A stretch of 49,177 nucleotides of DNA from a virus (IMGVR_UViG_3300016654_000037:1-49177); one strand, 5' to 3'; counted from the first letter of the stretch, positions 2,021 to 49,177 are shown. The notes: generated by a model from the letters alone, not told the origin. Numbers and translations: made by a program.

Positions 2021-2244
2021 AATGCCCGCCTTGTCACGGTGAATGTAACCAAGGAAGGTCTTGCCCCGCTGAGAACCATCCAGCGTATGAAAGTTGGATG
2101 GCATGGGCTAAAAACGTCGGGGTAAGTTTAAACAGATTCGTATTCACAAGATCATCCCACGGCCAAGCCTTTAGAGCGGGTTGGGATGCAAAAGGTAAAA
2201 CAGGAGAAGATGAATGGAAGAAACATACAAACGACCAAGCATAG
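2017..2244 (+). CDS. Small Cys-rich hypothetical protein
   Basis: ATGA start at 2017 with GGAG upstream. MKCPPCHGECNQGRSCP motif. Confidence 0.65.
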   Translation: MKCPPCHGECNQGRSCPAENHPAYESWMAWAKNVGVSLNRFVFTRSSHGQAFRAGWDAKGKTGEDEWKKHTNDQA

Positions 2245-2789
2245 ATTACCCATACTTCCCGGGGAATCTACGGCGAATAAGAAAAGAAAAAGGACTGTCA
2301 TTCAGGATGCTCAGTCTGATCTGCGAAGCAACGCCATCAAACCTTTGTAGGTATGAGCAGGGCATACACATGCCAAGAACAAAAACCTTAGAAAGCATAA
2401 GCCGTGCGCTCGGTGTACCGGTAAATGAACTGCTTGGACCTTTAAAAATAAATGACGAAGTTGCGGGAGAAGGGTCAACGAGTGGGCCTGTAGCGTATGT
2501 GTCTGGATCTTATGGCGGGTATTGCGTCATACAACCGATTGACCGCGCTGTCGTTTTGCCTGTTGGACTACCTCTTTACACATCACCACCTACGCAAGAG
2601 ACTGTTGAATGTATGTGCGGCATTTGCAAGCTCGGCAAACGTGAATGGGTTGGGCTGACGGATGAGGAAATCTGGAAATGCAACAAAGCGAGTGGCAATG
2701 CTGTGGAGTTTCACATTTGCTATGAACATCAGAACGTGGAGGATTTTGCGGAATCTATCGAAGCCAAACTGCGGGAGAAGAACACATGA
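2214..2789 (+). CDS. XRE/Cro-C1 HTH protein fused to a phage accessory module
   Basis: NLRRIRKEKGLSFRMLS...PSNLCRYEQG...LESISRALGVPVNELL is an XRE HTH. C-terminus has PLYTSPP...REWVGLTDEEI...IEAKLREKN. Confidence 0.8.
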   Translation: MEETYKRPSIDYPYFPGNLRRIRKEKGLSFRMLSLICEATPSNLCRYEQGIHMPRTKTLESISRALGVPVNELLGPLKINDEVAGEGSTSGPVAYVSGSYGGYCVIQPIDRAVVLPVGLPLYTSPPTQETVECMCGICKLGKREWVGLTDEEIWKCNKASGNAVEFHICYEHQNVEDFAESIEAKLREKNT

Positions 2790-3253
2790 GCAGAGAAGCT
2801 ATGCAGCAGGCGCTTGAAGCGCTGGAGAGTGATTTAATAAGTCATGCTGGGCTTGTTAGCAGAAAGCAAGCCATTACCGCCCTGCGCCAAGCACTGGAGA
2901 CAGAGCAAGAGCCGGTGGCTCACGTTGACCACCGCATTCACGGCTGGCCGGATTGCCTCGTGATAAAAGCCGACCCGCCGGATAGAGAAGACATCATCCG
3001 CATGGCTAGAGAAGCAGGGCTTGCTGATTCCAACGGGGTTGTTCATGCTTTTTTTCAACTTAAATACTTTGCATATCTTGTTGCCGAGCATGAGCGCGAA
3101 GCTATATGGAACTTGCTGTTTGAGTACGCAGGTAGAGATGATTTATCTGATTCAGATCAATCGCTGCTTAAACATTTATTAGATCTCATCGCAGCAAGGT
3201 GGCAAGAATGGAGTAACAAAGAAGGGGAAGAATCGTGGATAGAGAACAAATAA
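2786..3253 (+). CDS. Modular hypothetical protein
   Basis: MSREAMQQALEALE / AITALRQALE / QEPVA / REDIIRMAREAG blocks. ATGA overlap. Confidence 0.7.
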   Translation: MSREAMQQALEALESDLISHAGLVSRKQAITALRQALETEQEPVAHVDHRIHGWPDCLVIKADPPDREDIIRMAREAGLADSNGVVHAFFQLKYFAYLVAEHEREAIWNLLFEYAGRDDLSDSDQSLLKHLLDLIAARWQEWSNKEGEESWIENK

Positions 3254-3579
3254 TCCGCATGGCGCGGGAGGTGGGGTTGCCTTATGAATACGACACAAAA
3301 CGTATTCTGTATTTGAAACAACTTGAACGCTTTGCCGCACTTGTCGTCGCAGCAGAGCGTGAGAAAGTTGCCCAATGGATGATGATTAGAGGCTACGCGA
3401 CAGGCCACGGCGACACGACCGAGAATCTTTTGACAGAACTGGAATGGCAAATTCGGGAGCAAGAGCGTGAGTTAATTGCTCGGTCAATGGATAAGCAAGC
3501 AGATCTTGCCTGCGACTACCTTGACAGGAAATGGGCGCAAGAAATGGCAGCAGCTATTAGAGCAAGGGGTGAACAATGA
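3235..3579 (+). CDS. Modular hypothetical protein
   Basis: REQIIRMAREVG...LERFAALV...GYATGHGDT...AAAIRARGEQ. GTG start after GAAGGGG. Confidence 0.7.
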   Translation: MDREQIIRMAREVGLPYEYDTKRILYLKQLERFAALVVAAEREKVAQWMMIRGYATGHGDTTENLLTELEWQIREQERELIARSMDKQADLACDYLDRKWAQEMAAAIRARGEQ

Positions 3580-3770
3580 CCAAAGAACTTAAGATCGTTT
3601 TTGCGCCGGGATGTTTTGATGACTTTGATGGCACTCAAGAAGAGTTAGATGAATTGGTCGCCGAGATCAAAAAGATGGCCGAGCAAGGAACACTAGAGGA
3701 GCAATTCGCCCCACTCAGCGAAGAGGAGGAAGAAGAGTTTCTGCGTCTACAAAGGAAAACACGCCAATGA
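3576..3770 (+). CDS. Small acidic protein
   Basis: 64 aa, D/E-rich (FAPGCFDDFDGTQEELDELVAEI). Confidence 0.7.
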   Translation: MTKELKIVFAPGCFDDFDGTQEELDELVAEIKKMAEQGTLEEQFAPLSEEEEEEFLRLQRKTRQ

Positions 3771-4066: not shown

Positions 4067-4551
4067 GACCCGAAGACAGAGACCATGCCAAAGTTATAAA
4101 CAACATCAAGACAAGCCACGCCACCGTTGAACGGATTGCACAATGGCTTGTCTCTAAAGGTTATCCAACGATCATCACCCCAACGAATTACGCCAACACT
4201 TATGAAGAGCGTTTAAACTGTGCGGATAAAGGGGATCTTTATATCTCCACTGAACAAGGTTCTTTGCGGGTAGAAGTAAAACAGCTCGGCACAACCTTTA
4301 CTTGTAAAGACGACTGGAAATTTAAAGATCAGGCGATTGTCTGTGCAAAACATTCATTTGATAAAGCCTCTCCTACGCCTTACCTTTATATTCTTGTCAG
4401 CGCCGATAAGGTACACGCCATGTTTGTTTACAGCTCAACCAAAGATCATTGGATAGCCAAGCAATTTAAAGACTCAAGGTATGAGAACATGACGCAGTAT
4501 TTTTATGTATGTCCCACCGAACACATTCTATTCGGGAGGATTGATGGATAA
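4063..4551 (+). CDS. Putative PD-(D/E)xK-like nuclease-fold protein
   Basis: DKGDL...RVEVKQ matches D...ExK spacing. Confidence 0.55.
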   Translation: MRPEDRDHAKVINNIKTSHATVERIAQWLVSKGYPTIITPTNYANTYEERLNCADKGDLYISTEQGSLRVEVKQLGTTFTCKDDWKFKDQAIVCAKHSFDKASPTPYLYILVSADKVHAMFVYSSTKDHWIAKQFKDSRYENMTQYFYVCPTEHILFGRIDG

Positions 4552-4690
4552 GTACTTTATCTTGAAAGAAGATATATACAAGATCTTAGATAATGCACAG
4601 ATCCCTGAGTCAGAACGCCAACGCATAAAGATGCTGATAGATGAACAACCAGTTGTCGCAGAAAGAAAAGAACTGGCTACAGAAGGTTAA
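4544..4690 (+). CDS. Small hypothetical protein
   Basis: GGAGG RBS, then ATG at 4544 (MDKYFILKEDI...). Confidence 0.55.
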   Translation: MDKYFILKEDIYKILDNAQIPESERQRIKMLIDEQPVVAERKELATEG

Positions 4691-4919: not shown

Positions 4920-7900
4920 TCCTCTTGTTAATTCTTAGCCCGTGCTCAGTTTCTGCACTGGCTGCATCTCTTGCACGAAGACTTTGGGTTAGGGTCTGAC
5001 CTGTAATCTCATAGCCGGGATACTTTTCATTGAAGCGTTCAATCGCCGCTTCAATATCTTCAATTGCGTCATAGTCATTCTCATGAATCGCCAAGGCGAA
5101 TCTATTCAATAGTCGCTTACGAGACATGGTTGCTTGAGACTCAACGGCGCGGATGGCTGTGTTCTCTTCCAGTTGTCGGGCGACTTCAGTTGGTGCATAT
5201 CCAATCGCTCTTAAGAACGACTGATAAGTATTCACTTCCTCAACGATGGGATCTCCCTTCATCGTTAAGACACCTTCTGTGTAATAACGGAAACCTTTCA
5301 TACCATTAGCTACCGCTAGAGGGATCATCATCTCTATACCTTGGTAGACGTTCCCATTAGACATGGCGCCTAGACCTTTGGAGAAGTTAATCGCCAACCC
5401 ACCCAAAGGTCCGGTGATGTCTGCAATCCACTGAAGGGTTGCTTCTTTCTGTTCCTGTTCTTCTGCTTGTTTTGCTCCTAGTCTTCCGACCTCTCTGAAG
5501 ATGAGTCCGTTCATAGAGACTCTTTCTGAGAAGTCCGCGCCGGTTAAGTAAGAGACCGGACCCTTAGCGATAATGTCCGCAGCAGAAGCACCTAAAGAGT
5601 CAGTCAGCCAAAGTTTAAACCTTGTCTCTGCATCAAAGACTTCATCTTCCTCATCACCAAACAACGCATTAGCCACTAACATGGTCATGAGATACATCGG
5701 ATAAGGTAACCCCATAACCCCGGAGAAGAGACCTGTCATCCCCATAATCCCGACCAATGTATCTCTAGCTTCTCTTGCTCTGTCAATGGCTTCTTGTTCT
5801 AGAGGGGTACCTTTGTATCTCTTGATCACATGTTTACCCAGGATCTGAGCTTCTCTCAACAGCAGGTAGGTCATGTTCATGCCGTACTGTTTAAACATGA
5901 AGATGACTTTGGCGTATTCACCTTGAGCAATCGGTGCTTTATTAGAAGCTGAGTAATCAAAGTGAGAACGTCTTACTAGACGAGACGCTTCTTTGATGGC
6001 AGCTTCATGGTCGCCTGACTTATCAAACGCCATCCTATAGGCCGCATAAGCCGTTGTAGACCTATTAAAAACTTCTGCCCCGTGGAACATAGCAGCCGTC
6101 CACTTCATGAACGTATTGAGCTTAGTCCCTACTATGGAAGGCTTGTCTGTTAACTGAGCAAGATCCATGGTTTGTGTGCGGGATAAGGTACCGTTATCCA
6201 TCAAAGCTTCTATTGCTTTGAGTTCTCTTTCATATCGTTTCTTATCGGCGCCAGAAGATTCTTTAACTCTTTGTTCTAAAGCACGAACCATAGAGAAAGG
6301 TTCATCTAAGTTCCTTTCTCCTGAAGACATAAACAAACGAGAAGCACCAAGCATCTCATTCATGGCCTTACCAAAACCAAACCTAGCGCCGAGGATAGGA
6401 TAAGCCACCGTAGCATTCTGTGATAGGTTGGTAATCGCTGAAGCAGGAGCGGTAAGGAACCAAGTAAATCCTAAGATCCCCGCTGCATTAGAAAACATAG
6501 ACGAGGGGGTAGGATTAAGGATGAACTCCTGTCTCTTTAATAAAGCGTTAAAGAGTTCTTGAGGTTCAGCGCCTTCGCCTTTCTTATTAGCTTCACTTAT
6601 CCTCTCCCGCATCTGATCCATAGACTTCTCAAACTGCGGGGCATACTTAAGTCTTGCTAAGTTATAGGCTCCATGAAAGGTGTTCTCAGCAAAGACTCTG
6701 ACGATGTCATTACTGTATCCTGGTGTTCCCTTTCTAGGGATGAAGTGCTTCCTCATAGAGACTTCAGGAAGCATCGTGAGATAAGCTGCCCACAGGTCTT
6801 GCTTAAGTTCCGTTGGGTTCTTGGCCGAATCTACCGTATCAATTAACTCTTTGATCACCGAGTTGGGGATAGGCATATTGAGGTTACGTTCCTCTCTTAG
6901 CCCAGCCTTTACGTCTTTAAGATGAGAGATAGATTGTTTAAACTTCTCTGCCTCTGACCGGTTCTCAAACATCACAAACCGTTCTACGCCGTCGTTGTAA
7001 GAGACCCAGTACTGACCGAAACGAGCCAAAGGAAAGTACGGACCTTTGACCCTAGCTGTTTCAAACTGTTTCTTCAGACGAGCATTGATCTCAGCTTTCT
7101 TGTTCTTATCAGTAATGGCTGAGTCTATCCTTTGAAGTAACAAAGCATAGTAAGCGTTGTATCTATTCTCATAGAAGTCTCTCATCTTCCGATAGAGAGC
7201 TTTAGCTTGTGGGTCTAGCTTGTTCCACATCTGTGTGATCGCGGGATTCCTATCAGTACCCGGGCGATCAGGATCAAAGGACGCTAACGTAGAACTATGC
7301 GCCACATCAGCCAATAGTTCAGACTGATCTGGTTTGGCCCGGGCTAAGTCTGATAACTCCTTAGCAATCTTATTCGCCGCAAAGAGTTGCTTGTCTCTAT
7401 AACCTGCCATCTCTTGGAAGGTCTCATAGTAGGTTGTCATCTCAGGTAGGATGTCTTTACCTACGTCTGCTAACTGCTCTAGAGTCAAGAAGTTATAGAG
7501 TAACTTCTTATTATCCAGACCCATATCAAGGATCTTATCTACAACCTGCTTACCAAAGGTCGGGGATTGGGCCATGAACTGATTGACGACGTTCATACCC
7601 TGTTTCGCTGTGACAGGAGACTTAGCTAAGTTGTATCCGTTAGAAGCTTCTTTAGATTGAACAGCGTCTATCTTCTCTAGAGCTTTCTCTTGCATATCTG
7701 CAATCGGGGATCGGGCAAAAGATAGGCGCCGATCATCAATAGAGAAGTCTCCAATATTAAAGACAGACTTAACTTGAGATGGTTCATAGACGGCGAGGTT
7801 CTTAGTACCACCCTCTTCTACATAGAATCCATCAAAACCTAAAGCACGGATAGCTTTCTGTGTATGCGGCTTTTCAATAACAGACCAAAGTCCGGCGCCA

Positions 7901-10900
7901 ATAGTTCTTTTAAGTCCATCTTCACTGTAGCCTTTGTCGGCTTCTCTAATCTTTTTGATGACCTTGGAAACATGCTCAGGATTCTCATAGTCAAAAGGAT
8001 TCTGCGCCGACACATAAACCGGGATCAGGTTAGGCCCGACCGGGACAAGCTCTTGATAGGCGCGGGTTAGGTAATCTAATCCCTCGCCTTGTCTATTTTT
8101 TAACTCAGCAAGTATCTCTGCTCTAGCTCTACCTTTATAGTCTTGACGTATTAAGGCTTGAGCTTTCTTTTCTACTTGAGATTTGATCTCTGGAGTAGCC
8201 CATTCATCTACATGCCTAGCTAACCAAGCATAACTATCTAAAGAGAAAGCCTCGGCAAACTTAGGACTATCAGTTACAAAGATGGCATTGGCTTGCTTAG
8301 GACGGAACGACTCTATGTCTCTAGAGGTACCGTGGTACATAACCTTAGGTCTACCGTCTTCAGTGATCTTGCTGTCTTTGAACCACTGTTTAAACTTCTC
8401 TGATCCCTCCAGCGGGGATCGGGCAAACTTAACAAGCTTTAAGCCTTTCTGCTTGTACTGAGTATGCTCTTCTATCCTAGTCTGTAAATCTTTAGCTAGG
8501 TCTTTAGCTTCTTTGATTAAGGCAGGTGTGCGTATCTCTGCGTAATCCAGATCGCCACGACCTAACCCATCATAGACATACGTTACGTTGTTAATGAACC
8601 GATCCGCGAACTCTCGGTCCTGATCAAAGAAGATCGTGCCGTCATCTTTCAGCGCCGTATCAGCGAGGGCTAAGGTCTTTCTGATATCTGCCCTGACTTG
8701 AGGAGTCAACATCTGCATAGCTGAATAAACACCACCCTCAGTTGCATAACGCTCAAGCTCTCTATCTTCTTTATCTTCTAATTGATTAGAGATGTCTATG
8801 ACATTCCGAGCAAATCTAATGTCTTTCTTGCTTGGGTCAAATGTGCCTCGGTTGCCAATAGCGGATTTAACTGAAGTTCCTCTGCCAAGTGCATAGACAT
8901 CACTATAGTAGGAGTACTTTTTTTCCTTATCTACCGCATACGCTTCACGAGCCATAGGCCCGATGTCAACTACTTGTCTGGCTACAAGAACTTCGCCCGG
9001 GGCAAGGAGTCTAGCGCGGCGGTCAAACTCTATCTTGTCAAAACGACGTGAACCATATCGGTCTACAGTTACAGGGAACTCAGTTAATTTATCTGCCTTG
9101 ACGTATATCGGAAGGATAGAGCCGGGAGTCCCAAAAGTTTCGTCTGGCATACCATATGAGGCAGCAACGTCCGGGCTATCCGATGCAAAAACATTGTACT
9201 CCCCTCTTGGTTCAGCATTGAGTGCTCCCTCCGCATCGCCTTGTATTCCACGATACAAAACTAACGGCTTACCTTCAGGGCCAACAACCTTGCTATCGCC
9301 GAACCAGCGTTTAAACTCTTCACTCTCTACTGATGGCGCCCGAGCAAACTTAACCCTCCCAAATCCATACTCTGCTGGGTTAAATGGCTCCTTCCGTGGA
9401 AGGTCTTTCACCCCGGCAGCGTTATTGATCTTCTCTACTTCTTCAGAAGAAAGGATACGGTTGATCTTCATAGATCCACCGATCAACCAATTACCTGTCA
9501 TGTTGGGATTGGTCTTGTACCGATAGTACCCATCCTCTGGGATCTGATCTTTGATCTCCGCAGTACTAGGATTCATCTGGCCTTTAACGGCGCCCGTTTG
9601 AGGGTTGCTTGTTTTGTAAGCGGTCGCCCGACGATTGGCTTCTGTTTGCCAATCTTTATCGTCCGCCATTTCGACTTCCACCCACACTTCGTCAGGGCGG
9701 CGTATTGTGGGCAGTTTCTTCTCTTCGCCCGATTCTTCGTCGTAACGGAGCGCAGGTTCGCCACCAATATGAGTAGCGATAGGCAAATCTCCGGCATGCC
9801 AGCCGGGGCGCATCGCTAAAGGTCCGAGCTTTGATTTGACTTGAGGACGTCCTGTCTTAGTAGCTTTTGCGCTTTCTCCAATGTCGGCGTCCATCCATTC
9901 GCCAACTGGGACTGGTGTATTGGAATTCACAAACAAAGGGAATAATTCGCCCGGGCGATTTTTCTTAACTTTGAACAGCTTATAAGCAGTAACCGTTTTC
10001 TTAGGCGCGGGTTTAGTACGTCTGGCGAATTTAAACGATGGGTCTTCTTCGTTGATTGAAGTCGGCCCAATACTTACTTCACTTGGTTTGATCTTGTACC
10101 GCATCGCACCAGAGGCGACAAAGTCAAAGACATCATCAGCTGTCTGATAGCCTTTACCTGTGAAGAAGTTTCTTATCCGGCCAAAGAAGTTAGCTAACTT
10201 GTTAAACGCAGTAGCAACTAATCCTGCCGGGGAGAAGGCTTTCTGCATATAGTGTTCAAACGCTACAGCAATAGCTTCTTCTATCTGTATCTCAGGAGAC
10301 ATGTCTGAGTACAACTCAGCCACGGTCTTACCTTGAAGGGCAGGCCACTTTCTCTTTAGCCAATCCTTCTTAGCGGCAGTGGTTAGAGCTTTCCACTCGG
10401 ATTCAGTAAAGAGACCTGCCTCTTTAAAGGCATGGATCGCCTCATGATGTAAGGTCTGAATCCTTGAGCGGGTAGGATTCATGGCGATACTAATGGTCTG
10501 ATTCGTAAAGGCACCGTCCACAGGTGTACCTTGACCGAGCAAAGTCTTGTACAACTTCACCCCAACGTCGGGTAGCCCTAAACGATCCAACTCTTTTCTG
10601 AGTTCCTCTACAGGTTCACCCGTTACTTCTTCTTGTGCAAGAAGATCTGCACTGGGTTCTGCACTGGGTTCTGCACTAACTACCGGTGCATTTGCACTAA
10701 CCGTCGGTGCATTTGCACTAACTTCTTCAGGCTGTTTAAACGCTAAATCCCTAGCTACATCCGGCGTATCACCCGTAGAGACCGGCACCCTTCCTTCTGG
10801 AGTATGTTTAAACGCAGTAAACTCATCAATACCTCTTTCTTTAGTTTCTTCTAAGGGCTTGATTTGTATAGGTTTTTGTAAGGCTTCAAGGATTTGATCT

Positions 10901-24037: not shown

Positions 24038-24042
24038 ATTCC

Positions 24043-27880: not shown

Positions 27881-27883
27881 GAC

Positions 27884-28144: not shown

Positions 28145-28147
28145 GGC

Positions 28148-28300: not shown

Positions 28301-28308
28301 ATCAACTC

Positions 28309-28734: not shown

Positions 28735-29704
28735 TGCCGCCTGTTCCTAAGAATGACTGACGAGGGACAAACCTAATCGGCGCCTTCTCCCGGTCTTCAT
28801 CGGCTGCTAATTGCCATGCTTCATCATACATGGCTTTTAACATGGGCATTCTTTCCATGGCCTGTGGGATTTTCATGGACAGCTTATAAGCCAATCCCGC
28901 CGTTAAAGCTTCTTGGAACCGGAAAGGAATATCTTCCACGTTAATACCATTACCTGCGTCTTGGAGTCTTCTGAGCCTCCAGTAAATTAAATAATAGTAA
29001 GGTGTTGTAATTGACCCTTGATCAGGCGCAGGCCAGACCGTGACGTTAGGAAACTTCGTATTCGTTACGGCAGCGCCCGAACTATGAGACGCAGCCGTTG
29101 TATTGTTCTGCCCACGAACAACATTATTAAGCGTTGCATACGCCGATACCCCGGTTGCCACATTCTCAGCTTGCGTAGAGGTTCCATAGTAGTACACCGT
29201 CTCAGAGTCAATGTTGGCGTAACCGGCATATGGGATGCCGTTTAAACTTGTCATTGGAATAGTTGTGACTGATGAGTTGATGGTTGCGGCTAAAGTTCCT
29301 GTGAATGTATAGGTCTGACCACCTTGGCGATCAATGTAGATCTGGATAGGTCTGCCTGTTGCTAGCTTGTTAGGGATCGTAGAGTAAGTACTTACTGATA
29401 TACGGCTGATGTTGATGTCAACCTGATTAGTACCTGTCCCGGTTCTGATGATGGTTTCCACCAGATCTACCGTGTTAATAGGAAGCGGGTAGGTAATCTG
29501 ATTCGCCATCAACATAATAGAGCCTTGTTCTAAGGTCCACATATTGATTCCGCGATTGGCCCACTCAGTGAGCATGAGGTTTAAACTTCTCCTCGCCGTT
29601 CTTAAATCATAACCAGACCTAAGTTCTGCCCCGCAGCGTTCAAACGCCTCTTCCACTAACTCGTTTAAGTTAGGGTTAAATGTGGTAGTGCCTGTGGTAC
29701 TCAT
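28727..29704 (-). CDS. Head-tail connector / tail tubular protein A-like, with beta-rich insertion
   Basis: EEAFERCG...ARRSLNL...WANRG...VWPAPD...GLAYKL...EDRE. Confidence 0.7.
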   Translation of the reverse strand: MSTTGTTTFNPNLNELVEEAFERCGAELRSGYDLRTARRSLNLMLTEWANRGINMWTLEQGSIMLMANQITYPLPINTVDLVETIIRTGTGTNQVDINISRISVSTYSTIPNKLATGRPIQIYIDRQGGQTYTFTGTLAATINSSVTTIPMTSLNGIPYAGYANIDSETVYYYGTSTQAENVATGVSAYATLNNVVRGQNNTTAASHSSGAAVTNTKFPNVTVWPAPDQGSITTPYYYLIYWRLRRLQDAGNGINVEDIPFRFQEALTAGLAYKLSMKIPQAMERMPMLKAMYDEAWQLAADEDREKAPIRFVPRQSFLGTGGNA

Positions 29705-39127: not shown

Positions 39128-39382
39128 TTAGCACTTCCATGCCCTTAAGCTTTTATTGATTCGGCTATTTGGATCGTTAGCGGTTTTGGCTGAAGTCAGT
39201 TTCTTTTTCATGCCTTCCATACGCGCACAAAAGGATTTCTTTCTTGCGCCGCCTTCTGGTTGCGGCGGCTTTAATCCCGGTTTTCCGGGATTGGCTGCAT
39301 TATAAGAAGCCCTGCCTTTAGCGTTTAAACCACCTTTTGGGTTTTTACCCTCTTTGCGTTGCCACGCCGGAGACTTAGCCAT
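39128..39382 (-). CDS. DUF6321-like basic protein
   Basis: MAKSPAWQRKEGKNPKGGLNAKGRASY...KSFCARM...SLRAWKC. Start at 39382. Confidence 0.75.
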   Translation of the reverse strand: MAKSPAWQRKEGKNPKGGLNAKGRASYNAANPGKPGLKPPQPEGGARKKSFCARMEGMKKKLTSAKTANDPNSRINKSLRAWKC

Positions 39383-40527: not shown

Positions 40528-40556
40528 TTTGTATCAGTTTAAACGCTAGGTGTCAA
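40528..40556 (-). promoter_or_regulatory. Sigma70-type promoter
   Basis: TTGACA (40556-40551), 17-nt spacer, TGa-TACAAA extended -10 (hexamer 40533-40528). Confidence 0.65.
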
Positions 40557-41136
40557 TGAGCTTATTGGATTTGCGTAGGTTTTCTTCCTGCGTCATAACA
40601 CGAAGATTCCATGGAACATGAAGGCCGCAAACAATATCTGACCGCAAAGGAATAATATGGTCAACGACATACTGCTCTCCTGTGGTCTGAGTCATGGTGA
40701 TTGCAATTTGATAAAGCTGCCGAATCTCCGATTTATGTTTTCTAGAAAGCCATTTTGGTGTCGCCTCTCTATGTTTCCTTCTTCTTGCTTTTGTATCAGC
40801 TCTTACTTGAAGTTTATTGTTTAGCTTCCATGCGTTTCTATATTGACGCAAAATTTCTGGCGGTCTAATAGCGGCAGCTTGAATAACCTGTTCTTTGTTA
40901 GCTTCATACCATTCATTCTTTCTGTCTTTAACATCCTCGCGTTTGTTGTACTCACGGAAGTAATCACTACGCTTTTCAGCAGCTTGCTGCCATTCCACTT
41001 TCAAACACTCAATACACGCACCCTTGGTCTTGCGTGGAGCTAAGTGTCCATGTTTGCATGGCTCCCCCGTGAAGTAATACTTAGCACCTTTGTTTTGCGC
41101 TTCTTTGCGAGTTTTAGGTAGGCTTGTGGTATCCAT
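40546..41136 (-). CDS. Freestanding HNH endonuclease
   Basis: YFTGEPCKHGH...CIEC N-terminus. VDHIIPLRSDIVCGLHVPWNLRVMTQEENLRKSN. Confidence 0.88.
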   Translation of the reverse strand: MDTTSLPKTRKEAQNKGAKYYFTGEPCKHGHLAPRKTKGACIECLKVEWQQAAEKRSDYFREYNKREDVKDRKNEWYEANKEQVIQAAAIRPPEILRQYRNAWKLNNKLQVRADTKARRRKHREATPKWLSRKHKSEIRQLYQIAITMTQTTGEQYVVDHIIPLRSDIVCGLHVPWNLRVMTQEENLRKSNKLIDT

Positions 41137-41141
41137 TTCAT

Positions 41142-41174
41142 CTCCTGTGACTTAGTAACAGGGAATATACCACA
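41142..41174 (-). promoter_or_regulatory. Extended -10 promoter plus RBS-sequestering hairpin of the HNH gene
   Basis: Minus strand TGTGG-TATATT, followed by CCUGU-UACUAAGUC-ACAGG overlapping the AGGAG RBS. Confidence 0.5.
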
Positions 41175-41184
41175 ACAAGATTAG

Positions 41185-41213
41185 AAAACAAAAAACCCCG
41201 CCAAAGCGGGGTT
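41185..41213 (-). terminator. Rho-independent terminator after the major capsid gene
   Basis: AACCCCGC-TTTG-GCGGGGTT followed by TTTTGTTTT. Confidence 0.9.
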
Positions 41214-41238
41214 CTCTGCGCTAAGTGCTTGATTTATA

Positions 41239-42147
41239 TCAAGCCCCCTGGCTGCCAAAGATACCGAGAGGATCTGAGACCCCGAATGAGTACCGTTCAC
41301 GGGCTTTATAGCGAACGTTTCCGGTATCAAAATCACCATCCATTCCAGTAGCCATCGGCACACGAACAAAGTGCTTCAGACCATTAGGAACATCGGTCGT
41401 AAGGAACCAGCCGTTGGTGTCCGTCAGCCAGTGGTTGATCGTATAACCCTCGGGGATAGACCCGTTGTTCTTGATGGCGTTGATGTCGTTGTTGTTGGTA
41501 CCGACACGGAGTTCAGTTTCCAACAGACGCGTTGCCACGAACTGGAGGTTAGAAGGAACAATCAACTTGCGGGGACGTGCTGCAATCAACAGACCACGTT
41601 CATCCGTCCATGCTGCAATTTGAATGACGGCATTCTCAAGAGAAGTCTCATTCAGGTCAGCTTGGGTGGAAGGCGTGTTGCTGTTAGTGCCGCCTGATAC
41701 CAGCGGATGTGACGTAGAGAATAGAGGCTGTCCATCACCGTAAGTTACGGTAGATGCCCATCCGTTGTTCAGCACGGCTGCTGCTTTCACCTGTTTGGTG
41801 TAAGCCATAGAACGTGCCAGAGCTTTTGTATAACGGCCAGAGAGGCTGTCGTACAAATTATCTTCAATCGCCTCTTCGGTGATTGAAAAGCCCATGGCAA
41901 TCGTTTCATGCTGGTAACGGGCGGTCCAAGCTTCCTGCGCGTTGTCATAAGCAATCGCAGCGCCTTCGTTCTTCACCGGAGCGGCAGAGAATCCAGACAG
42001 CTTGGTTTCCTCTTCAAACGAACGCTCAGAGGTCTCGGTTTCGTAGATCTCTTTGTGTTCTTCACCATAACGAGCATACTCCATGCCGAACAATGCGTTC
42101 AAGCCGGGGAGAAGCTCTTTCAGTAGTTGTGCGCGTGAAATAGCCAT
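41239..42147 (-). CDS. Major capsid protein (HK97 fold, Mu gpT-like)
   Basis: MAISRAQLLKELLPGLNALFG...RYTKALARSM...YKARERYSFG. Followed by a terminator. Confidence 0.9.
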   Translation of the reverse strand: MAISRAQLLKELLPGLNALFGMEYARYGEEHKEIYETETSERSFEEETKLSGFSAAPVKNEGAAIAYDNAQEAWTARYQHETIAMGFSITEEAIEDNLYDSLSGRYTKALARSMAYTKQVKAAAVLNNGWASTVTYGDGQPLFSTSHPLVSGGTNSNTPSTQADLNETSLENAVIQIAAWTDERGLLIAARPRKLIVPSNLQFVATRLLETELRVGTNNNDINAIKNNGSIPEGYTINHWLTDTNGWFLTTDVPNGLKHFVRVPMATGMDGDFDTGNVRYKARERYSFGVSDPLGIFGSQGA

Positions 42148-42158
42148 TTATGTTCCCC

Positions 42159-42827
42159 TTACAGTCCGACTGGGTTGTTGTACGCATGACCACCAGTCAC
42201 CACGCCAGTCGCTTGCACAACATACGGTGCATTGAACTTAACGATGATTTCGGGGTAGTAAAGCGTACTGCTATAGGTAAATGCCGTGTCAGGCACCACG
42301 TCAATGACTCGCAGCGGAAGTGTCTGGGTTGTTGCGCCAGAAGCAATATCCACTGCATAACGCGAGTCTTTGGTCGTCGTATTCAAGGTGTTTGCCACCA
42401 AGGCTACGTTTAAACCAACGTCGGTATAAGTAAAACCAGAGGTTGTTGAAACAACTGTAGTTCCGCTAACACCGCAGACTTGGAACAACTGATCGGGATC
42501 TTCACAAACATACGCAATAATGTTGGTGTTGCTAGCTACCGAAGTGTTAGCAATCCAAGCTTGCGAGAATGTGGGTTGACCCGTCACAGAAGAAATGAAC
42601 GTACAGCCCATAAATACACCGGCAAAACCGGTAGTCGGGGCAGCAGTCGTTTCTGTACAAACAACGATACAACCGTTGCTATCAAACTTCACAGGATCAC
42701 CAAAGCCAATTGAGCTTGCGCTAGAAGAATAAATCCGGCGCTGGCGAGTGGCTCCGGCAAATACCTGACCGCCGATCAAATTGACCGGACGCAGCCCATA
42801 AGGGCCATCAATCGTCGGGTAAGCCAT
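42159..42827 (-). CDS. Capsid decoration / auxiliary protein
   Basis: PYGLRPV...GDPV...GVFMGC...DPDQLF. Immediately upstream of the MCP. Confidence 0.7.
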   Translation of the reverse strand: MAYPTIDGPYGLRPVNLIGGQVFAGATRQRRIYSSSASSIGFGDPVKFDSNGCIVVCTETTAAPTTGFAGVFMGCTFISSVTGQPTFSQAWIANTSVASNTNIIAYVCEDPDQLFQVCGVSGTTVVSTTSGFTYTDVGLNVALVANTLNTTTKDSRYAVDIASGATTQTLPLRVIDVVPDTAFTYSSTLYYPEIIVKFNAPYVVQATGVVTGGHAYNNPVGL

Positions 42828-42843
42828 GCTTAACTCCTAAAAA

Positions 42844-43284
42844 TTAACGGAAGTTTTTAGTCTCCGAGCGACTCTGATTAAACAGAGGCATTCTCGGATC
42901 GCTTTCACGCATGAAGTTACTGTTCACCGAACTCATGTAATCAGACCCTTGCTTTTGATAATAAGCATTACGCTGATTAACCATCTCTTGCGGCGCCCTA
43001 CATAACATCACGCCACCTGTTTCAATGTTGCCGGTTTTGTTTCTAACCGTTGGCATTTTTGCTTCCATCTCTGGATAATCTTCCCATTTACAGGCTTCAA
43101 ATCCATCTTGGTAGCGAACGCTAACATTGCGATCATCGGGCTGTCCCAGAAGCGTTACTCTTACCCAGCGATGACGCCAGCCCGGGCGAGGGTCAGGATC
43201 GGGCAACAAAGAAGGAGGACGCCATGTCATAGGCCGTTGTGCTTCTTCACGGGTCTCATGCTCACGGGGTACTTTATTAACCAT
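42844..43284 (-). CDS. Conserved head-module protein
   Basis: Likely start MVNK at 43284. WRPPSLLPDP...RWVR...GGVMLC. Confidence 0.7.
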   Translation of the reverse strand: MVNKVPREHETREEAQRPMTWRPPSLLPDPDPRPGWRHRWVRVTLLGQPDDRNVSVRYQDGFEACKWEDYPEMEAKMPTVRNKTGNIETGGVMLCRAPQEMVNQRNAYYQKQGSDYMSSVNSNFMRESDPRMPLFNQSRSETKNFR

Positions 43285-44152
43285 TTCGTTGCTCCAGTTC
43301 AACCATCTTCCGATAGTATTCTTCAAGGGGGACACCAAGCCGTTTAGCAATCTCAGCTTGTGATTTGCGAAGCTTTATTTGTTTCGGCGGGGAGCTTCGT
43401 TGCACGGGTGCAACCACCGTTGCAGGACGCTTTTTGGGAGTTTCTTCGGTGTCATCCTGAGTCTCACCGAAGTATTCTGGGAATTTCTCTCGGACTCGCC
43501 GATTGATCTTCTCATAATATTCATCTGTCTTGGCGTATTCGTTCCCATACTCACGAGTGAGCTTGTTGTGAACGGCCACTGCCATAGCTGTCATTTCTTC
43601 ATGATCGGGATCACCAAACCACGGATTATTTTCTTTCCATGATTCGGCCCGGGTATCCCTAATAGGCGGAGTGTAAACAGGCTTTTCCTGTTTAGTCAAA
43701 TGCTTTTCAGGTGGTTTAAACGATTTAAGTCTTTCGTGGCGCATTTGCACCGCGTTTAACTTCGCTTGTTCCTCAACTATTTTTTCTGCATCACCGGACT
43801 CTAAAGCCTGTTGTAAAGCTTTTTTTGCAGATTGAATTTCACCGTCGCTTGCTGTTTGCAAGGTTTTAATTAGGGTTGATTCACCGTTAGAAACTCTTTC
43901 CTGAAGTTTTTTATTCTCTTCGGCCAGTTTCTGGGCAAAAGCAATAGCCTCTTCTTTTTCTCTTACAGCAGCTTCTTTAGCCCGACGCTCATCGTGATAC
44001 CCATGTTTAAGGTGCTTTAAACGCTGTTGGACATCACTAGAATACTTTTCAATCTCTTCGTCAGCAATGTCAGGGTTTTTAATCGGCGTTCGGTTTTGAT
44101 CTTGAGGCGGTGTATCGTCCTCAATCTCAACGGTAATTTTCTCTTCACTCAT
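43277..44152 (-). CDS. Capsid scaffolding protein
   Basis: Acidic N-terminus, coiled coil, WKENNPWFG, ends IAKRLGVPLEEY. Confidence 0.75.
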   Translation of the reverse strand: MSEEKITVEIEDDTPPQDQNRTPIKNPDIADEEIEKYSSDVQQRLKHLKHGYHDERRAKEAAVREKEEAIAFAQKLAEENKKLQERVSNGESTLIKTLQTASDGEIQSAKKALQQALESGDAEKIVEEQAKLNAVQMRHERLKSFKPPEKHLTKQEKPVYTPPIRDTRAESWKENNPWFGDPDHEEMTAMAVAVHNKLTREYGNEYAKTDEYYEKINRRVREKFPEYFGETQDDTEETPKKRPATVVAPVQRSSPPKQIKLRKSQAEIAKRLGVPLEEYYRKMVELEQRNG

Positions 44153-44161
44153 AACTGCTCC

Positions 44162-44509
44162 TTATGCGCGGGTAATACCGCGTGGGTCTTGCACAACAGC
44201 TTCTACCGAGTCATCGTTAATCAAACGAAACTCCCTGTTGTGAATCTTGAATCGGGTGCCTGAGTAAGCGCGGACTAAAATAAAATCGCCCTCTTTACAC
44301 CACGGACCATTAGGGAATCTGGTTTTGTCTTTAAAACAATCCGGACCCATCTTGGCTACAAACAAAACAACCGTGCTGAACTCTTCAATCTTTTGCAGGC
44401 TGTCTGGTTTGAGTAGCCCGTTTTCAAACTTATCTTCAATCTCTGGAATAAAGCACAACATCCTGTAACCCGAAGGTTCTGGAAGTTGCGTGGCTTTTTC
44501 TTCAGTCAT
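44162..44509 (-). CDS. GroES/Cpn10-like co-chaperonin
   Basis: PSGYRML...GLL...MGPDCF...WCKEGDFI...YSGTRF...RLINDDSV. Start MTEE at 44509. Confidence 0.85.
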   Translation of the reverse strand: MTEEKATQLPEPSGYRMLCFIPEIEDKFENGLLKPDSLQKIEEFSTVVLFVAKMGPDCFKDKTRFPNGPWCKEGDFILVRAYSGTRFKIHNREFRLINDDSVEAVVQDPRGITRA

Positions 44510-44684
44510 CGTCAATCCTTTCTGCAAGGTCTTTAAGGATCTCATTTGCAGTCAAAAGACCTTGAATCTGACCACAAACGTGCTTGTATTCATCAAATGA
44601 CTTGATGCTTCCTTGCGAGAGCGTCTCTGATAAATACTTGACTTGCTTAAGAATTTCTAACGAAACCGCTTCTGCGAAGGTCAT
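44502..44684 (-). CDS. Small conserved protein downstream of portal
   Basis: FDEYKHVCGQIQGL motif. Confidence 0.7.
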   Translation of the reverse strand: MTFAEAVSLEILKQVKYLSETLSQGSIKSFDEYKHVCGQIQGLLTANEILKDLAERIDDD

Positions 44685-47026
44685 TACTCACCTCGTTGTG
44701 CTTCTGCGGCTTTTTCTAAAAGCCGTGATTGGATTTGCGCCGATGCAATACGTTCCTGCGCGGCGATACGCTCACGTTCTCTTTCATCTTTGCTTTGTTC
44801 AGCCTGAGCGCGAAGCTGAAGGTCTGCTTGAGTCTTCTGCTGTTTAAGTTGCAATTCACCCTGCTTAATCTGTAACTCCATTTGTTGTTGTTGAACAATG
44901 GGGTCTTGTTGTTGCTGCTGGGCCTGCTGTTGTTGAAATTGCGCCATGTGTTTCTGGAGTAATTGCTGCGATGCAGCAGCCACCAGACGCGACAATTCCA
45001 CCTCCATGCTCTCTGGTAAAGACTCTCCCGGCGGGGGTAGGGGAACCCCGATGGTTTCTTCCATCTGACGACGGTACTGAAACCCTAAATGCTCATTAAT
45101 ATGCGCCATCATGGCCCCAAGCATGGCCTGTGCCTGCGGGTTTTGCCCTAGCGTTGCCCGTAATACAGGGTCTTGGATTGCTGTCGTATGAACAGCCATA
45201 TGAGCTTCATGATCTTGATATATAAAAGCCTTTACAGGCTTCATATTTAATACCGCCATATTCTCTGATACAGGGTCTTGAGGCTTTTCTTCTTTAGCTG
45301 CGGGGATAAGGTCACCTACATCTTTAATCCCTATGACATCTAACATCCTTGCATGGAGTTTGGGCATGTCATAGATCTGTGGCGCTTGGGAAGCAAGCTG
45401 TAAAACAGCCTGATACTGGACAATTCGCTGCGCCATTGTTGTTGCATTAGGATCTGACACAGGAATTACGTCTACCATGTCGTAATCCGCCTGTTTAATC
45501 ATCCTTCCGTAGGGCGAATCCACGTCATAGCTGTACTCTTCAGGGGCGTAATCACGAATAATCGCCGCTAAGAGCTTGAATTCCTGTCTCATGGAGTAAT
45601 GAAGACGGGCTTGCACCGCCGACATCACTTTGAGCGTCCTTTCTAGGACCGCTAAAGTCGTACCAACCGGGGTATTTGCTGACAAATCAGAGATTTGCAT
45701 GTCAGCCGTGGCAGCAAACCTTCTTCCTTCCTGCACAATCGTCTGTAAGAGAGTAAAAAGTACCTGACTTGGCTCTTTATAAGGCAACGGAAGGATGTTG
45801 TCTTTGATTGCACCCGACGGAACGTCCACATCCCGGAACTCTCCCGGGCTAATGGGGGTGTCATCACCTTTAACTCTCAATCCTCGGGTCTTCAAACCAC
45901 CTGGAAGGTTGCTTAAAGTACCCGCATCTACCAATTGTCTGATTAAAGACGTACCTGATTTAGCAAAAGCACCGACTAAATGGATTAATCCAAACCCATA
46001 AAACCCAAAACCAGGGACATAAATGTAATGAACAAAGTGCTGACGCTTTAATTTCAGCGGATCTTCTTCGTAATAGTTCCGCCGAATGGATAAAACGGTA
46101 TTACTTTGCTTATCTAAGGTAATCACATAGGGTAAAGCGATCCCCGTAGGTTCTCCATCATCCCCTTTATCTTCATATCCCGGTAAATCTAAGTCCGCGT
46201 GGATCTCCAATATCTTGTATCGGTGATCCATCGTAGCCGTCATACCCATCTCTTCGGCTTTTTTCTTCTCCACATCGTCTAAAACATTCTGTGGTTCGGG
46301 TAAATCCACGTCTCGGTAAAACCCAGACGCCATTAGTTTTTTAACGTCGTTCTCGGTTTTACGCATCACATGGGTTACACGCGGGGAGTTCTCTAACGAA
46401 CTAATCCCATAAGGCACAATGATGTCTTCAGCCGGTACAAACACCGCAACTTGGCGTCCTAATGACGGATCAAAGTAGATCTTCTTAAAAGCTGACCCTG
46501 CTAAAGCCAGTGACCACAATAGCTTTTCATGTTCTGGTCGGTATTCAGGCATCTGTTCAGTAAGACGCCAGTTCATATCTTCTTGAACCCTATCCGCCGC
46601 AGAAGTTTTAGCGGGGGTTACTTTTCCAACAATCTGAGTCTTTACAGGCCCAGCCGCTGGGAACTGCTCCATAATGGATTCACTCTGAAACCTTACCGCC
46701 GCTTCAGACAGGATGGGATAAAACACACCACAAGCTCCGGGCCATGGCTCGGTTCTTTCTTCATACTTAAGTCCTAAAAGGTTTAACCCATCTACATAAG
46801 TTTTAATCCATTCTTTCCTGGCGGACTCATCTTCTTCAATATCCCTAATTAAATCGGATGCAAGGAACTGAAGTTCCCGCTCATCCATATATTCCGCCAG
46901 ATTAGAATCAAAATCCTCTTCTGGCTCTTCTTTGCCTATGGTTAAAGCAAAGTCTTCGGTCTCAATAGTCACCTCTTCAGGATCTTCTATCTCAATAACC
47001 ATCGGGGATAAGGATTTGTCCATCAT
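44684..47026 (-). CDS. Portal protein
   Basis: 780 aa directly after TerL. PWPGACGV, LAGSAFKK, RQLVDAGTLSNLP, Gln-rich C-terminal barrel. Confidence 0.9.
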   Translation of the reverse strand: MMDKSLSPMVIEIEDPEEVTIETEDFALTIGKEEPEEDFDSNLAEYMDERELQFLASDLIRDIEEDESARKEWIKTYVDGLNLLGLKYEERTEPWPGACGVFYPILSEAAVRFQSESIMEQFPAAGPVKTQIVGKVTPAKTSAADRVQEDMNWRLTEQMPEYRPEHEKLLWSLALAGSAFKKIYFDPSLGRQVAVFVPAEDIIVPYGISSLENSPRVTHVMRKTENDVKKLMASGFYRDVDLPEPQNVLDDVEKKKAEEMGMTATMDHRYKILEIHADLDLPGYEDKGDDGEPTGIALPYVITLDKQSNTVLSIRRNYYEEDPLKLKRQHFVHYIYVPGFGFYGFGLIHLVGAFAKSGTSLIRQLVDAGTLSNLPGGLKTRGLRVKGDDTPISPGEFRDVDVPSGAIKDNILPLPYKEPSQVLFTLLQTIVQEGRRFAATADMQISDLSANTPVGTTLAVLERTLKVMSAVQARLHYSMRQEFKLLAAIIRDYAPEEYSYDVDSPYGRMIKQADYDMVDVIPVSDPNATTMAQRIVQYQAVLQLASQAPQIYDMPKLHARMLDVIGIKDVGDLIPAAKEEKPQDPVSENMAVLNMKPVKAFIYQDHEAHMAVHTTAIQDPVLRATLGQNPQAQAMLGAMMAHINEHLGFQYRRQMEETIGVPLPPPGESLPESMEVELSRLVAAASQQLLQKHMAQFQQQQAQQQQQDPIVQQQQMELQIKQGELQLKQQKTQADLQLRAQAEQSKDERERERIAAQERIASAQIQSRLLEKAAEAQRGE

Positions 47027-48522
47027 CAGTAGTACCCCACCTTTCTTCTAAAATAGACGGGATCATCAGGTTCATCAGTTTGCAAACGGACAAATCCACC
47101 TTTTCTAAACCGAATCAATGCTTGGGTGGTAGAGTCAGTCAAGTCGTCGTTGTCCGAATAAGGAAATCCGGCTATCTCTTCCATGACTTCTTCCGCCCAA
47201 CGTTTGCGAGGTGCCCATACTTTTCCGGAGGAAAATAAGTCAGAGACAGCGTTTACACGCACCACTTTATCATTTCCCCGTGATGGTGTGAACTCTTGAA
47301 CCGGAATCCCCATCTGTCTTAACTCATAAATAAGCGGCGCACCAGCCGCCTTAGCCTCTACAACAAATGCATCAGGCTCCCAATCCTTCCACATTTCAAA
47401 GGCTTTTCTCTTTAAATCAGGGAACTCCAGACGCTCTTTAAACGCATCTAAAAGAATGACATGAGCATCCGGACCTTCATCAGGATGAAACACGCCCCAC
47501 GTTGTACAAGCGGAGTAGTCTGAACGATTACTCTTTGTAAACGCCGTATCCCAGCTTTGAATAATAAATTCACAAGAAGGTGGCCTATCTGCTTCCCAGA
47601 CTTTCCACCACTCTCTTTTAATAATCGCGCCTTCTTCAGATGTAGGCTTTTGCTGATATTGGGCGTTCCACTTACTAACGGGCAGTTCAGCTTTTAAAGA
47701 TTCCAATTCCTCTATCGGCCAAAACTCCGGCCACAAAGGATTGCCACTTGGTAAAAGAGCGGGAAGCTCAATAATCTCCCACTCATTAATCTTTTCATCC
47801 TCAATGGATGACTTTAAAATCCTGCCGGTCAAGTCTTTCGTAGACCAACGGGTCATCACAATAACAATAGACCCCCCAGGCTGGAGACGCTGTCTTGGGC
47901 CTGACGTATACCACTCATAGACCGAATCAAAAATGCCGGGATCGGTCATGGCTAACTTAGCCTCTTGCTCCGAATGAGGATCATCAATAATAAGAAGATC
48001 CGCACCTTTACCGGTTACAGCACCGCCCACACCAATAGCAAAATACTCCCCGCCGTGATTAGTACTCCAACGACCAGCAGCCTTACTATCAGCCTGAAGT
48101 CCGACATTTGGAAAGACTTCCTTATATACATCCGCCCCAACAAGGTTCCTAACTTTCCTGCCAAACCCTACTGCTAACTCAGCCGTATGAGAAGTCTGTA
48201 TCACCTTCTTTTGGGGGAATCGGCCTAAGAACCAACTAGGCAATAAAAAGGAAGCAAACTCACTCTTTGTATGTCTAGGTGGCATATTAATGATCACCCG
48301 CTTTAAATCACCACTAGCGATCCTTTCAAACTTATCCGCCATTAACTTGTGATGTCTTCCAGCAATAAACCCGGGCCACATCTTCTTCACATAATGCAGA
48401 AAGCTATGCTGAGATCTTTCTCTATCCCTAGCACCTTTGTATTCATCTAATAACTTCAACACCTCCGCCTGTTTTTCCACAGGTAGATGCGGAAGTTTCT
48501 TTAAGACCTGATCCAAGTTCAT
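47026..48522 (-). CDS. terL: Terminase large subunit
   Basis: Walker A-like MPPRHTKS, Walker B LLIIDD, QSWDTA and DDLTDS RNaseH-like nuclease motifs. Confidence 0.95.
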   Translation of the reverse strand: MNLDQVLKKLPHLPVEKQAEVLKLLDEYKGARDRERSQHSFLHYVKKMWPGFIAGRHHKLMADKFERIASGDLKRVIINMPPRHTKSEFASFLLPSWFLGRFPQKKVIQTSHTAELAVGFGRKVRNLVGADVYKEVFPNVGLQADSKAAGRWSTNHGGEYFAIGVGGAVTGKGADLLIIDDPHSEQEAKLAMTDPGIFDSVYEWYTSGPRQRLQPGGSIVIVMTRWSTKDLTGRILKSSIEDEKINEWEIIELPALLPSGNPLWPEFWPIEELESLKAELPVSKWNAQYQQKPTSEEGAIIKREWWKVWEADRPPSCEFIIQSWDTAFTKSNRSDYSACTTWGVFHPDEGPDAHVILLDAFKERLEFPDLKRKAFEMWKDWEPDAFVVEAKAAGAPLIYELRQMGIPVQEFTPSRGNDKVVRVNAVSDLFSSGKVWAPRKRWAEEVMEEIAGFPYSDNDDLTDSTTQALIRFRKGGFVRLQTDEPDDPVYFRRKVGYY

Positions 48523-48746
48523 GTTTGGATCTTCCTAAACTTCACCCCTTGCGGTCTTAACGTCCTCTGTTTTCCTTTCTGTTGCCGTACCGCACCCATC
48601 TCCACCAACCGATTACATATCCGGTGGATGTTGCCTCTACCTCTAGCACCTAAGACCATCATAATGTCATCAATGCTAGGAGAAAAACCATATTTCTTCC
48701 ACCACTCATCAATGACAAAAAATACCTCTAGCTGTCTGGGAGTCAT
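48519..48746 (-). CDS. LexA N-terminal-like winged-helix DNA-binding protein (no peptidase domain)
   Basis: MTPRQLEVF..I...WKKYGFSPSIDDI...L..RGRGNIHR...L...G...R. Confidence 0.8.
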   Translation of the reverse strand: MTPRQLEVFFVIDEWWKKYGFSPSIDDIMMVLGARGRGNIHRICNRLVEMGAVRQQKGKQRTLRPQGVKFRKIQT

Positions 48747-49177
48747 CTAAAGCCTCCCGGGGGGTCTTTTAAATCTCGGTATGCAATATCTATAGGGTCC
48801 ATTTTGGAAGGGGGTGGGGTAGATGAAATGGGAGGCAATTGTTCGGGTGGAATATTGTGCATAGGGCTGGCCCCCTGCACCCCGTCACTTTGCCCCTCCC
48901 CCTCCCCGGTGGGGTCTGCATATCCCCCATTTCTCTCTAGGGGAGCATCATCGTTTAAACACTCTGTCGTCTCAGTGACAATTGATGCATCGTTTAAACG
49001 TAACTCATGCTCTAAGCTCAGAGCGTCTATGTCTTCCGCCTCAATGGTCAACTCTTTGATTGATTGCTCTATCTTTGCTCTGAGGTCCAGGCTTGAGTGA
49101 ATCACTACACGCTCTTTACGCTCAGTGAATGCTGCAACTTCTGTAACCTTGCCAAGCATTTGTAGAGCGTTGATACG
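48743..49177 (-). CDS. Terminase small subunit, C-terminal part (5'-truncated)
   Basis: Frame is open to the window end (RINALQMLGKVTEVAAF), matching the TerS ALxLLGK-type motif. Lies upstream of terL. Confidence 0.65.
   Translation of the reverse strand, partial: RINALQMLGKVTEVAAFTERKERVVIHSSLDLRAKIEQSIKELTIEAEDIDALSLEHELRLNDASIVTETTECLNDDAPLERNGGYADPTGEGEGQSDGVQGASPMHNIPPEQLPPISSTPPPSKMDPIDIAYRDLKDPPGGFR

Follow-up and report, generated by a model that had tools for sequence, protein, structure and literature searches.

A dispersed palindrome in a podophage contig and its candidate reader, a SprT-like metalloprotease with a zinc ribbon

The viral contig IMGVR_UViG_3300016654_000037:1-49177, analysed here over its full 49,177 nucleotides (the window), carries the 8-bp palindrome GTTTAAAC at 23 places, which raises the question of what keeps a single word dispersed along a phage genome. 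The window is the whole 49-kb contig, belongs to a podophage and encodes a terminase, portal, GroES, capsid, endolysin and a 2506-aa polyvalent protein. The answer we propose is that the 23 copies are selected sites bound by the ribbon of a phage SprT-like metalloprotease, which would tether the protein so that it clears host proteins; taken as a whole, we regard this proposal as evenly poised. Its parts differ in strength. Comparison of sequences indicates that the C-terminal zinc ribbon very probably binds the word directly, and the tethered clearing of DNA-bound host proteins, argued by analogy, is a tentative purpose to which we give slightly less than even weight.

A preliminary description of this DNA had counted 23 exact copies at roughly 45% GC, where about one would be expected. 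Every coordinate that it listed is correct, the measured GC is 46.5%, and the density is 468 copies/Mb. Markov expectations, taken as half the both-strand figure, climbed from 1.0 copies (order 0) through 1.2 (order 2), 2.1 (order 3), 3.1 (order 4) and 5.8 (order 5) to 13.8 (order 6), the rise at high orders occurring because the motif's own sub-words are absorbed, and GTTTAAAC ranked first among the 8-mers of the window at orders 2 and 3. Shuffling of synonymous codons with the proteins kept gave a mean of 2.0 and a maximum of 8 in 1000 shuffles, compared to 21 sites fully within called genes, while 0.9 copies within genes were expected from a shuffle of codon order. The over-representation is confirmed. 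As had also been described, copies occur in all three frames and in genes of both strands: 10 are read as xxG-TTT-AAA-C (F-K), 11 as xGT-TTA-AAC (L-N) and one as GTT-TAA (V-stop), with one intergenic (40537), so that 22 of 23 touch coding sequence, two of them in plus-strand genes. The 24 one-mismatch words sum to 29 copies, therefore only the exact word is raised; neighbour words are not depleted. Among the 64 six-bp palindromes, 15 are absent from the window and many are depleted. Separately, TCGA is strongly avoided (10 vs 71 expected) and GCCCGGG is raised (19 vs 4.0 at order 2). The sites are as follows, without strand, with the residues encoded and their state in relatives (L and G handles).

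2126..2133, site 1, GTTTAAAC: S-L-N in the open reading frame (ORF) 1963-2244, plus strand
4211..4218, site 2: R-L-N in ORF 4063-4551, plus strand
5613..5620, site 3: F-K in the 2506-aa polyvalent protein; exact in L403 and with one mismatch in L404
5889..5896, site 4: F-K; exact in both L403 and L404 (67-74% nucleotide identity)
6936..6943, site 5: F-K; not in L403
8388..8395, site 6: F-K
9309..9316, site 7: F-K
10734..10741, site 8: F-K; exact in L403
10806..10813, site 9: F-K; exact in L403
13763..13770, site 10: F-K; exact in both L403 and L404
14543..14550, site 11: V-stop; exact in both L403 and L404
16194..16201, site 12: L-N; exact in L404, not in L403
18760..18767, site 13: F-K in the endolysin; exact in L404
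29240..29247, site 14: L-N
29579..29586, site 15: L-N
33622..33629, site 16: L-N in a 2344-aa ORF
35176..35183, site 17: L-N in the 2344-aa ORF
39323..39330, site 18: L-N
40537..40544, site 19: the sole intergenic site; exact in G357
42408..42415, site 20: L-N; exact in G357 and with one mismatch in L703
43714..43721, site 21: F-K; exact in L703, G357, L001 and L006
48953..48960, site 22: L-N in the probable terS; exact in L004
48992..48999, site 23: L-N in the probable terS; exact in L004

Selection of the sites at the DNA level is supported by the codon shuffle together with their conservation in relatives. The preliminary description had suggested looking for positional conservation and for co-occurrence with a specific gene, and both were found. 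Seven relatives with 67-85% nucleotide identity allowed 23 comparisons of window sites, and 19 of these were exact, compared to 4.6 predicted from background 8-mer conservation. Nine GTTTAAAC sites were present only in relatives, demonstrating that sites are kept but also turn over. Two finer claims stood in part: the gap in the tail-fibre block (18760-29240, 10.5 kb) is real but not significant taken alone (P=0.11), and the two copies 39 nt apart do lie at 48953 and 48992, but the label terS is only probable, the ORF at 48743-49159 having no PHROG or Pfam match. In the relative L001 the 3' end of the probable terS has five copies of GTTTAAAC packed into 113 nt (positions 7-119), compared to two in the window, a possible local expansion of sites near the packaging region. 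The trait is patchy among TerL and capsid relatives, strong in L001-L006 and some distant contigs and absent from most.

Which gene follows the word? Protein fragments of 15 genomes were compared with 16 motif-rich and 18 motif-poor genomes, the other 11 of 45, partial or intermediate, having been set aside; whole or near-whole contigs were fetched, up to 50 per count. The best-associated gene encodes a SprT-like zincin of ~190–200 aa; it occurs in 15 of the 16 motif-rich genomes, the lone exception being the incomplete window, and in none of the 18 motif-poor ones, and all 15 near-complete motif-rich relatives have it. Replication genes (primase-helicase, RusA and a small ssDNA-binding-like gene) were almost as well associated (13-15 of 16), therefore the association test alone cannot separate gene from lineage. 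In podophage relatives the SprT-like gene is placed upstream of terS, with a MoxR-type AAA+ ATPase gene and a vWA gene as neighbours. It lies past the right end of the window, at 1.9 kb in L703 and 2.9 kb in L004, divergent from terS/terL, in relatives that are colinear with the window's end.

41066..49177, no strand: stretch colinear with L703 and L004 by nucleotide alignment; the SprT-like gene is not inside the window

The window is colinear with L703 over 41066-48916 (85% nucleotide identity) and with L004 over 44040-49177 (84%; TerL 97%), and the L703 copy of the gene is complete, with HExxH and the full ribbon signature described below, in a locus that has 11 sites in 18.5 kb. From this position in both relatives we infer that the window's phage has the gene, so that the best candidate reader would be encoded outside the window. 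The protein alignment retrieved 80 viral loci, of which 77 showed enrichment for GTTTAAAC/TTTAAAC and the other three carry GTTTACA/GTGTAAAC. Among loci fetched with TerL that extend at least 4 kb upstream, those with the gene had 62 TTTAAAC vs 5.6 expected (14 loci) and those without it 24 vs 32.6 (21 loci).

The first lead as reader was another HExxH domain, in the polyvalent protein.

10078..10608, minus strand: domain X, an HExxH domain spanning aa 597-773 of the polyvalent protein (2506 aa); in related podophages it serves as a lineage marker for the motif

Most X-bearing genomes have 20-52 exact copies, and X is present in 87 of 88 motif-rich loci and 16 of 16 motif-rich genomes. If X of the ejected polyvalent protein, another early-module gene or a host protein were the reader, with the SprT-like gene travelling along, these counts would follow, as would the near-equal association of the replication genes and two genomes (G406 and G412) that have X and moderate enrichment without the SprT-like gene. 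However, X also occurs with intact sequence in 19 motif-poor loci and in 3 of 18 motif-poor genomes, and it was judged a confounder and not the reader; no polyvalent protein is annotated in the motif-bearing cultured sipho- and myophages (no search for X itself was made there); hosts span three phyla; and phages of the same host differ. We therefore consider a different reader very improbable. Two further candidates from the same protein were set aside: of 54 loci bearing an ART-PolyVal domain without X, one was motif-rich, and that one ends upstream of the ART domain, while region U, upstream of X, is a marker of a single clade, and neither the window nor the G359 group has it.

An AlphaFold model of the SprT-like protein (predicted local distance difference test score 90.6) is predicted to consist of a zincin and a terminal small two-stranded zinc ribbon with a helix. 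Compared with SPRTN (6mdx) it gave Z 7.8 and a root-mean-square deviation of 3.2 over 96 aligned residues, and with Wss1 (5xbn) Z 7.7 and 3.2 over 103; minigluzincins, SPRTN and Wss1 were tied at Z 7.7-8.0, with Foldseek E values of 0.006-0.008. The ribbon alone returned weak matches to small zinc ribbons (best Z 3.6). The Pfam SprT-like family (PF10263, cut-off 25.6 bits) was passed by the proteins of L004 (31.3) and of phage GardenState (gp53, 28.5), and G389 (19.6), G407 (23.8), G359 (13.2) and R5C (15.2) fell below it. HExxH, which reads HELVH in L004 and L703, was present in all 79 loci with a readable C-terminus among 81.

Homologues occur in 164 cultured records, and the motif was counted, as the sum of GTTTAAAC and GTGTAAAC, in 27 cultured records in all. 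Several findings point to the gene and, within its product, to the ribbon. First, the gene predicted enrichment in 13 of 14 unrelated cultured phages, whose hosts are Actinobacteria, Proteobacteria and one cyanobacterium: the Streptomyces phages Henoccus (42 sites) and UNTPL (39), the Arthrobacter phages Tweety19 (27) and Emotion (17), the Microbacterium phages Floof (17) and GardenState (16), the Dinoroseobacter phages R26L (21) and R5C (17), the Pseudanabaena phage Pan1 (16), and 4A (14), Alexa (8), Mica (7) and Persinger (4). The expectation was at most 1.0 where computed, and the word was the top-ranked k-mer in GardenState, Emotion, 4A, UNTPL, R5C and Pan1. Second, cultured phages without the gene had no site (SpecialK, phiMiGM15, Footloose, DSS3P8) or one (Sycamore, Pam1); the capsid protein of phiMiGM15 is 77% identical to that of GardenState. 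Third, six cultured phages have the gene with 0-1 sites (Dismas, Armstrong, Eden and Quenya 0, CN1 and MW2 1), and in the five whose protein tails were read (MW2, like R26L, was classed by site count only), namely Dismas, Armstrong, Eden, Quenya and CN1, the protease domain is kept, but other residues stand in place of the C-terminal Q-x-T-R and of the arginine in Y-x-x-R. Floof, with this signature and its 17 sites, shares its recorded host with Dismas, Armstrong and Quenya. Since homologues without Q-x-T-R...Y-x-x-R are without the motif even on the same host, the ribbon is indicated as the reader. Other words stood out in two of these phages: AGAAGTATA eight times and AGAAGTAAA six times in Bordetella phage CN1 (W08), and GAAGCTC 33 times vs 2.6 at order 3 in Curtobacterium phage SpecialK (W01).

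The variants of the word co-vary with the ribbon as well. The half-site TAAAC is common to ATTTAAAC, CTTTAAAC, GGTTAAAC and GTGTAAAC, and the non-palindromic variants are used in both orientations, GTGTAAAC standing 23 times forward and 16 reverse in UNTPL and 10 and 6 in GardenState. Where S-A-L or S-L-A replaces T-x-K-W, the spectrum is rich in ATTTAAAC (G397, G407, G359, G405 and G362). Further dispersed words were seen in some relatives, each in both orientations: G359 (L257-L259) has CGGGAACC in 31 copies and GGGAACC in 54 clusters vs 12.9, G406 has GGGAACC 40 times, and G005:C107 has AAACCCCG 23 times. L064, a relative without GTTTAAAC, has seven dispersed copies of the palindrome ACACGTGT in 1101-6247, compared to 0.1 expected.

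Two chromosomal homologues without the signature showed no local enrichment (0 sites in G240 and 4 in G300, in 80 kb). These homologues, in the small bacterial chromosomes L719-L726 (G240, G300), lack both signature and motif and are possibly domesticated copies. A profile search of 301 genomes gave four matches, a search of genome contigs with the G389 protein confirmed no homologue, and a prophage-like copy in G252, with Q-K-N-R and six GTT/GTG sites in 80 kb, is ambiguous. A dispersed binding site, one of the readings first offered for the palindrome, is thus supported by the shuffle, conservation, gene association and variant words, the binding itself being what we infer.

Several observations weigh against the SprT-like ribbon as reader or against its proposed purpose. 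The gene is not inside the window, and the loci fetched with the protein and with TerL are kin rather than independent. G406 (complete) and G412 (96% complete), both among the 11 genomes set aside before the association count, are enriched without the gene (TTTAAAC 20 vs 6.8 and 24 vs 9.2; ATTTAAAC 12 vs 1.5 in G406), which recent gene loss would explain. Phage ep3 has the ribbon signature with four sites, not significant, and the signature-negative set comes to about three lineages. G434 has T-x-K-W yet a CTT/GTT/ATT mix, and the choice of GTG or GTT is left without explanation. Of 20 genomes, only 5 had sites spaced more regularly than by chance, the window not among them. The fold Z-scores lie within the range that common arrangements reach. 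Lastly, HExxH is broken in 4 of 16 alignment rows, with exact copies kept (G391 46, G394 51, G409 26, G434 12); proteolysis is therefore not the whole purpose, and binding, not cutting, is the constant.

How might the sites serve the phage? On the mechanism we propose, the C-terminal zinc ribbon of the SprT-like metalloprotease would dock on GTTTAAAC, docking would anchor the protein at intervals of about 2 kb along the phage's own genome, and the tethered DNA-dependent protease would cut host proteins settling on phage DNA, by analogy with the function of SPRTN and Wss1. Phages of at least three phyla may thus share a form of self-marking in which a sequence-specific, DNA-anchored SprT protease cuts landing proteins locally and leaves host DNA unserved, the proteins cut being defence, silencing or crosslinked proteins; we offer this tentatively, at a little under even weight. 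SPRTN, IrrE and CapP are activated by DNA, and binding could be imagined to activate the phage protease, or to recruit the MoxR AAA+/vWA pair, as phage DNA replicates, so that the sites sense DNA dose or form a loading platform and time development or organise the genome. The pair is encoded beside the SprT-like gene in 13-15 of 15 podophage genomes, but none is annotated beside the gene in GardenState, Emotion, R5C, Pan1, Alexa or ep3, and we judge such a sensor improbable. CapP and IrrE appeared in the structure search as weak rows only.

The same reader could also be a repressor or immunity protein whose many bound sites block transcription or mark a lysogenic or carrier state, as stoperators do, the protease being a switch or dispensable. 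This would suit the loss of HExxH with the motif kept and the position of a site within 150 nt upstream of the SprT-like gene in 37 of 85 cases, compared to 16.8 expected (related rows included). In the main text of a recent preprint, the SprT-like protein of AZ phages is listed among candidate immunity repressors, and phage Liebe, with an N-terminally truncated gene, forms clear plaques where Maureen forms turbid ones, though three further changes separate the two (bioRxiv 10.1101/2025.05.26.655371). However, a single window site is intergenic and 22 of 23 touch coding sequence, the non-palindromic variants stand in both orientations, no integrase was found among the 61 ORFs of the window (an incomplete contig), and the protease gene is kept in EB phages without the motif. 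We judge a repressor unlikely, although it is the strongest of the alternatives, and the tethered protease remains the reading that we carry forward.

Readings that do not involve the ribbon fared less well. In 301 Pseudomonadota genomes GTTTAAAC was at most ~3-fold over a reversed-word control (~50 sites/Mb, compared to 468/Mb in the window), and 55 further genomes had no comparable case. The highest ratio among these genomes was 5.3, in G306, a genome chosen for holding a close site pair, and a two-copy pattern scan of genome contigs found no enriched taxon. A host repeat, including the HIP1-like repeat of the preliminary description, is not supported by these genomes; phages of one host also differ sharply. 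The methylation mark that it had raised is without support in the sequence data, with no methyltransferase ORF among the top associations and neighbour words not depleted. Its three proposed helix-turn-helix (HTH) readers, the XRE protein (2214) and the winged-HTH proteins at 3767 and 48519-48746 (LexA-like), were not borne out: none was among the 75 best-associated fragments, and loci fetched with the XRE protein bore the motif family in only 3 of 46 cases, many matching the C-terminal part of XRE only, and XRE was set aside as reader. That the sites are modification or strand-nick marks, or products of repair bias (HIP1-like, or like the nick motifs of T5 and tf), would account for the sharpness of the exact word; yet no methyltransferase or nickase was among the best-associated fragments, neighbours are not depleted, both orientations are used, and the co-variation is with ribbon residues of a protease-fold protein, and we find this scarcely credible.

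The phage itself can be placed by its terminase. The window is an incomplete contig of an HTVC023P-like podophage, as judged by homology: its TerL is 54.5% identical to that of Pelagibacter phage HTVC027P (MN698241), described as an HTVC023P-type podophage (PMC9599517). It shares with that type a related terminase and structural module and a layout of GroES, capsid, 2OG-Fe(II) oxygenase and large ejection proteins. HTVC027P and DSL-LC04, by contrast, have no SprT-like gene and 1 and 0 copies of GTTTAAAC in the 50 kb examined, and the motif-rich relatives of the window mostly have a primase-helicase/RusA/Sak module. Because relatives are ~60 kb, about 10 kb is absent from the window, and the replication region falls beyond it. 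A megablast search of its first 25 kb against cultured phages gave no match. Other features of the window include the polyvalent protein (4876-12396), with two ART-PolyVal-like domains, LPD39, a DarB-like C-terminal part and the HExxH domain X, ahead of which many relatives have a coiled coil with two small beta-beta-alpha modules around it; two endonuclease VII-like genes, at 19102-19767 beside the endolysin and at 40546-41136 after the capsid gene; and, in the XRE gene and the next ORF, short patches (2594-2830 and 3060-3278) that match viral loci otherwise unlike the window at 82-99% nucleotide identity, suggesting that early genes often undergo micro-exchange.

If the proposal is true, a virus would distinguish its own DNA from its host's in a new way, by a sequence-specific protease tethered to DNA. 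The common phage 'SprT-like protease' would gain a defined DNA target along with a candidate module for recognising it, and the selection acting on a DNA word appears strong enough to hold dozens of coding positions in genomes of 40% to 70% GC. Natural controls exist in Floof and Dismas (same host, signature present or absent) and in Maureen and Liebe (gene intact or truncated). No description of the motif-protein pair was found in the literature searched, though preprint supplements and subscription journals could hold a mention.

The closest known relative is the SprT-like protease of AZ/EH/EB actinobacteriophages (Lizalica gp46), which belongs to the same family (30-44% by tblastn), joins an HExxH zincin to a small C-terminal domain and shares 4JIU as top fold match. 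The main text of the preprint predicts that the C-terminal domain binds DNA and assumes an SPRTN-like function or a role in lysogeny, and it names no target sequence, with 0 matches to TAAAC or GTTTA (bioRxiv 10.1101/2025.05.26.655371). The account given here differs in tying a specific genome-wide motif to a ribbon signature across phyla. With SPRTN/Spartan and Wss1 the phage protein has the zincin fold in common, and the L004 and GardenState gp53 proteins pass the SprT-like family cut-off. SPRTN and Wss1 act on DNA structures and crosslinks without sequence specificity and are not known to have a dispersed cognate word, whereas the phage protein is apparently sequence-specific and its catalytic motif dispensable in some members. 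HIP1 of cyanobacteria is a highly iterated host-chromosome palindrome linked to methyltransferases; the window's word is likewise an iterated 8-bp palindrome within genes in several frames, but the bacterial genomes searched show no enrichment of it, and its occurrence follows a phage gene. The stoperators of Cluster A mycobacteriophages (L5, Bxb1) resemble it in that dozens of dispersed sites in a phage's own genome (here 23, and 16-52 in many others) would be bound by one phage protein. Stoperators are asymmetric 13-bp sites that point along the direction of transcription, lie largely between genes and are bound by an HTH repressor; the sites here are 8-bp (pseudo)palindromes in coding sequence and both orientations, with 1 of 23 intergenic, and the best-associated gene encodes a zincin with a zinc ribbon, HTH ORFs not being among the top associations. 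The sites depart from stoperators and from HIP1 in defining traits, and the protein from SPRTN in its apparent sequence specificity.

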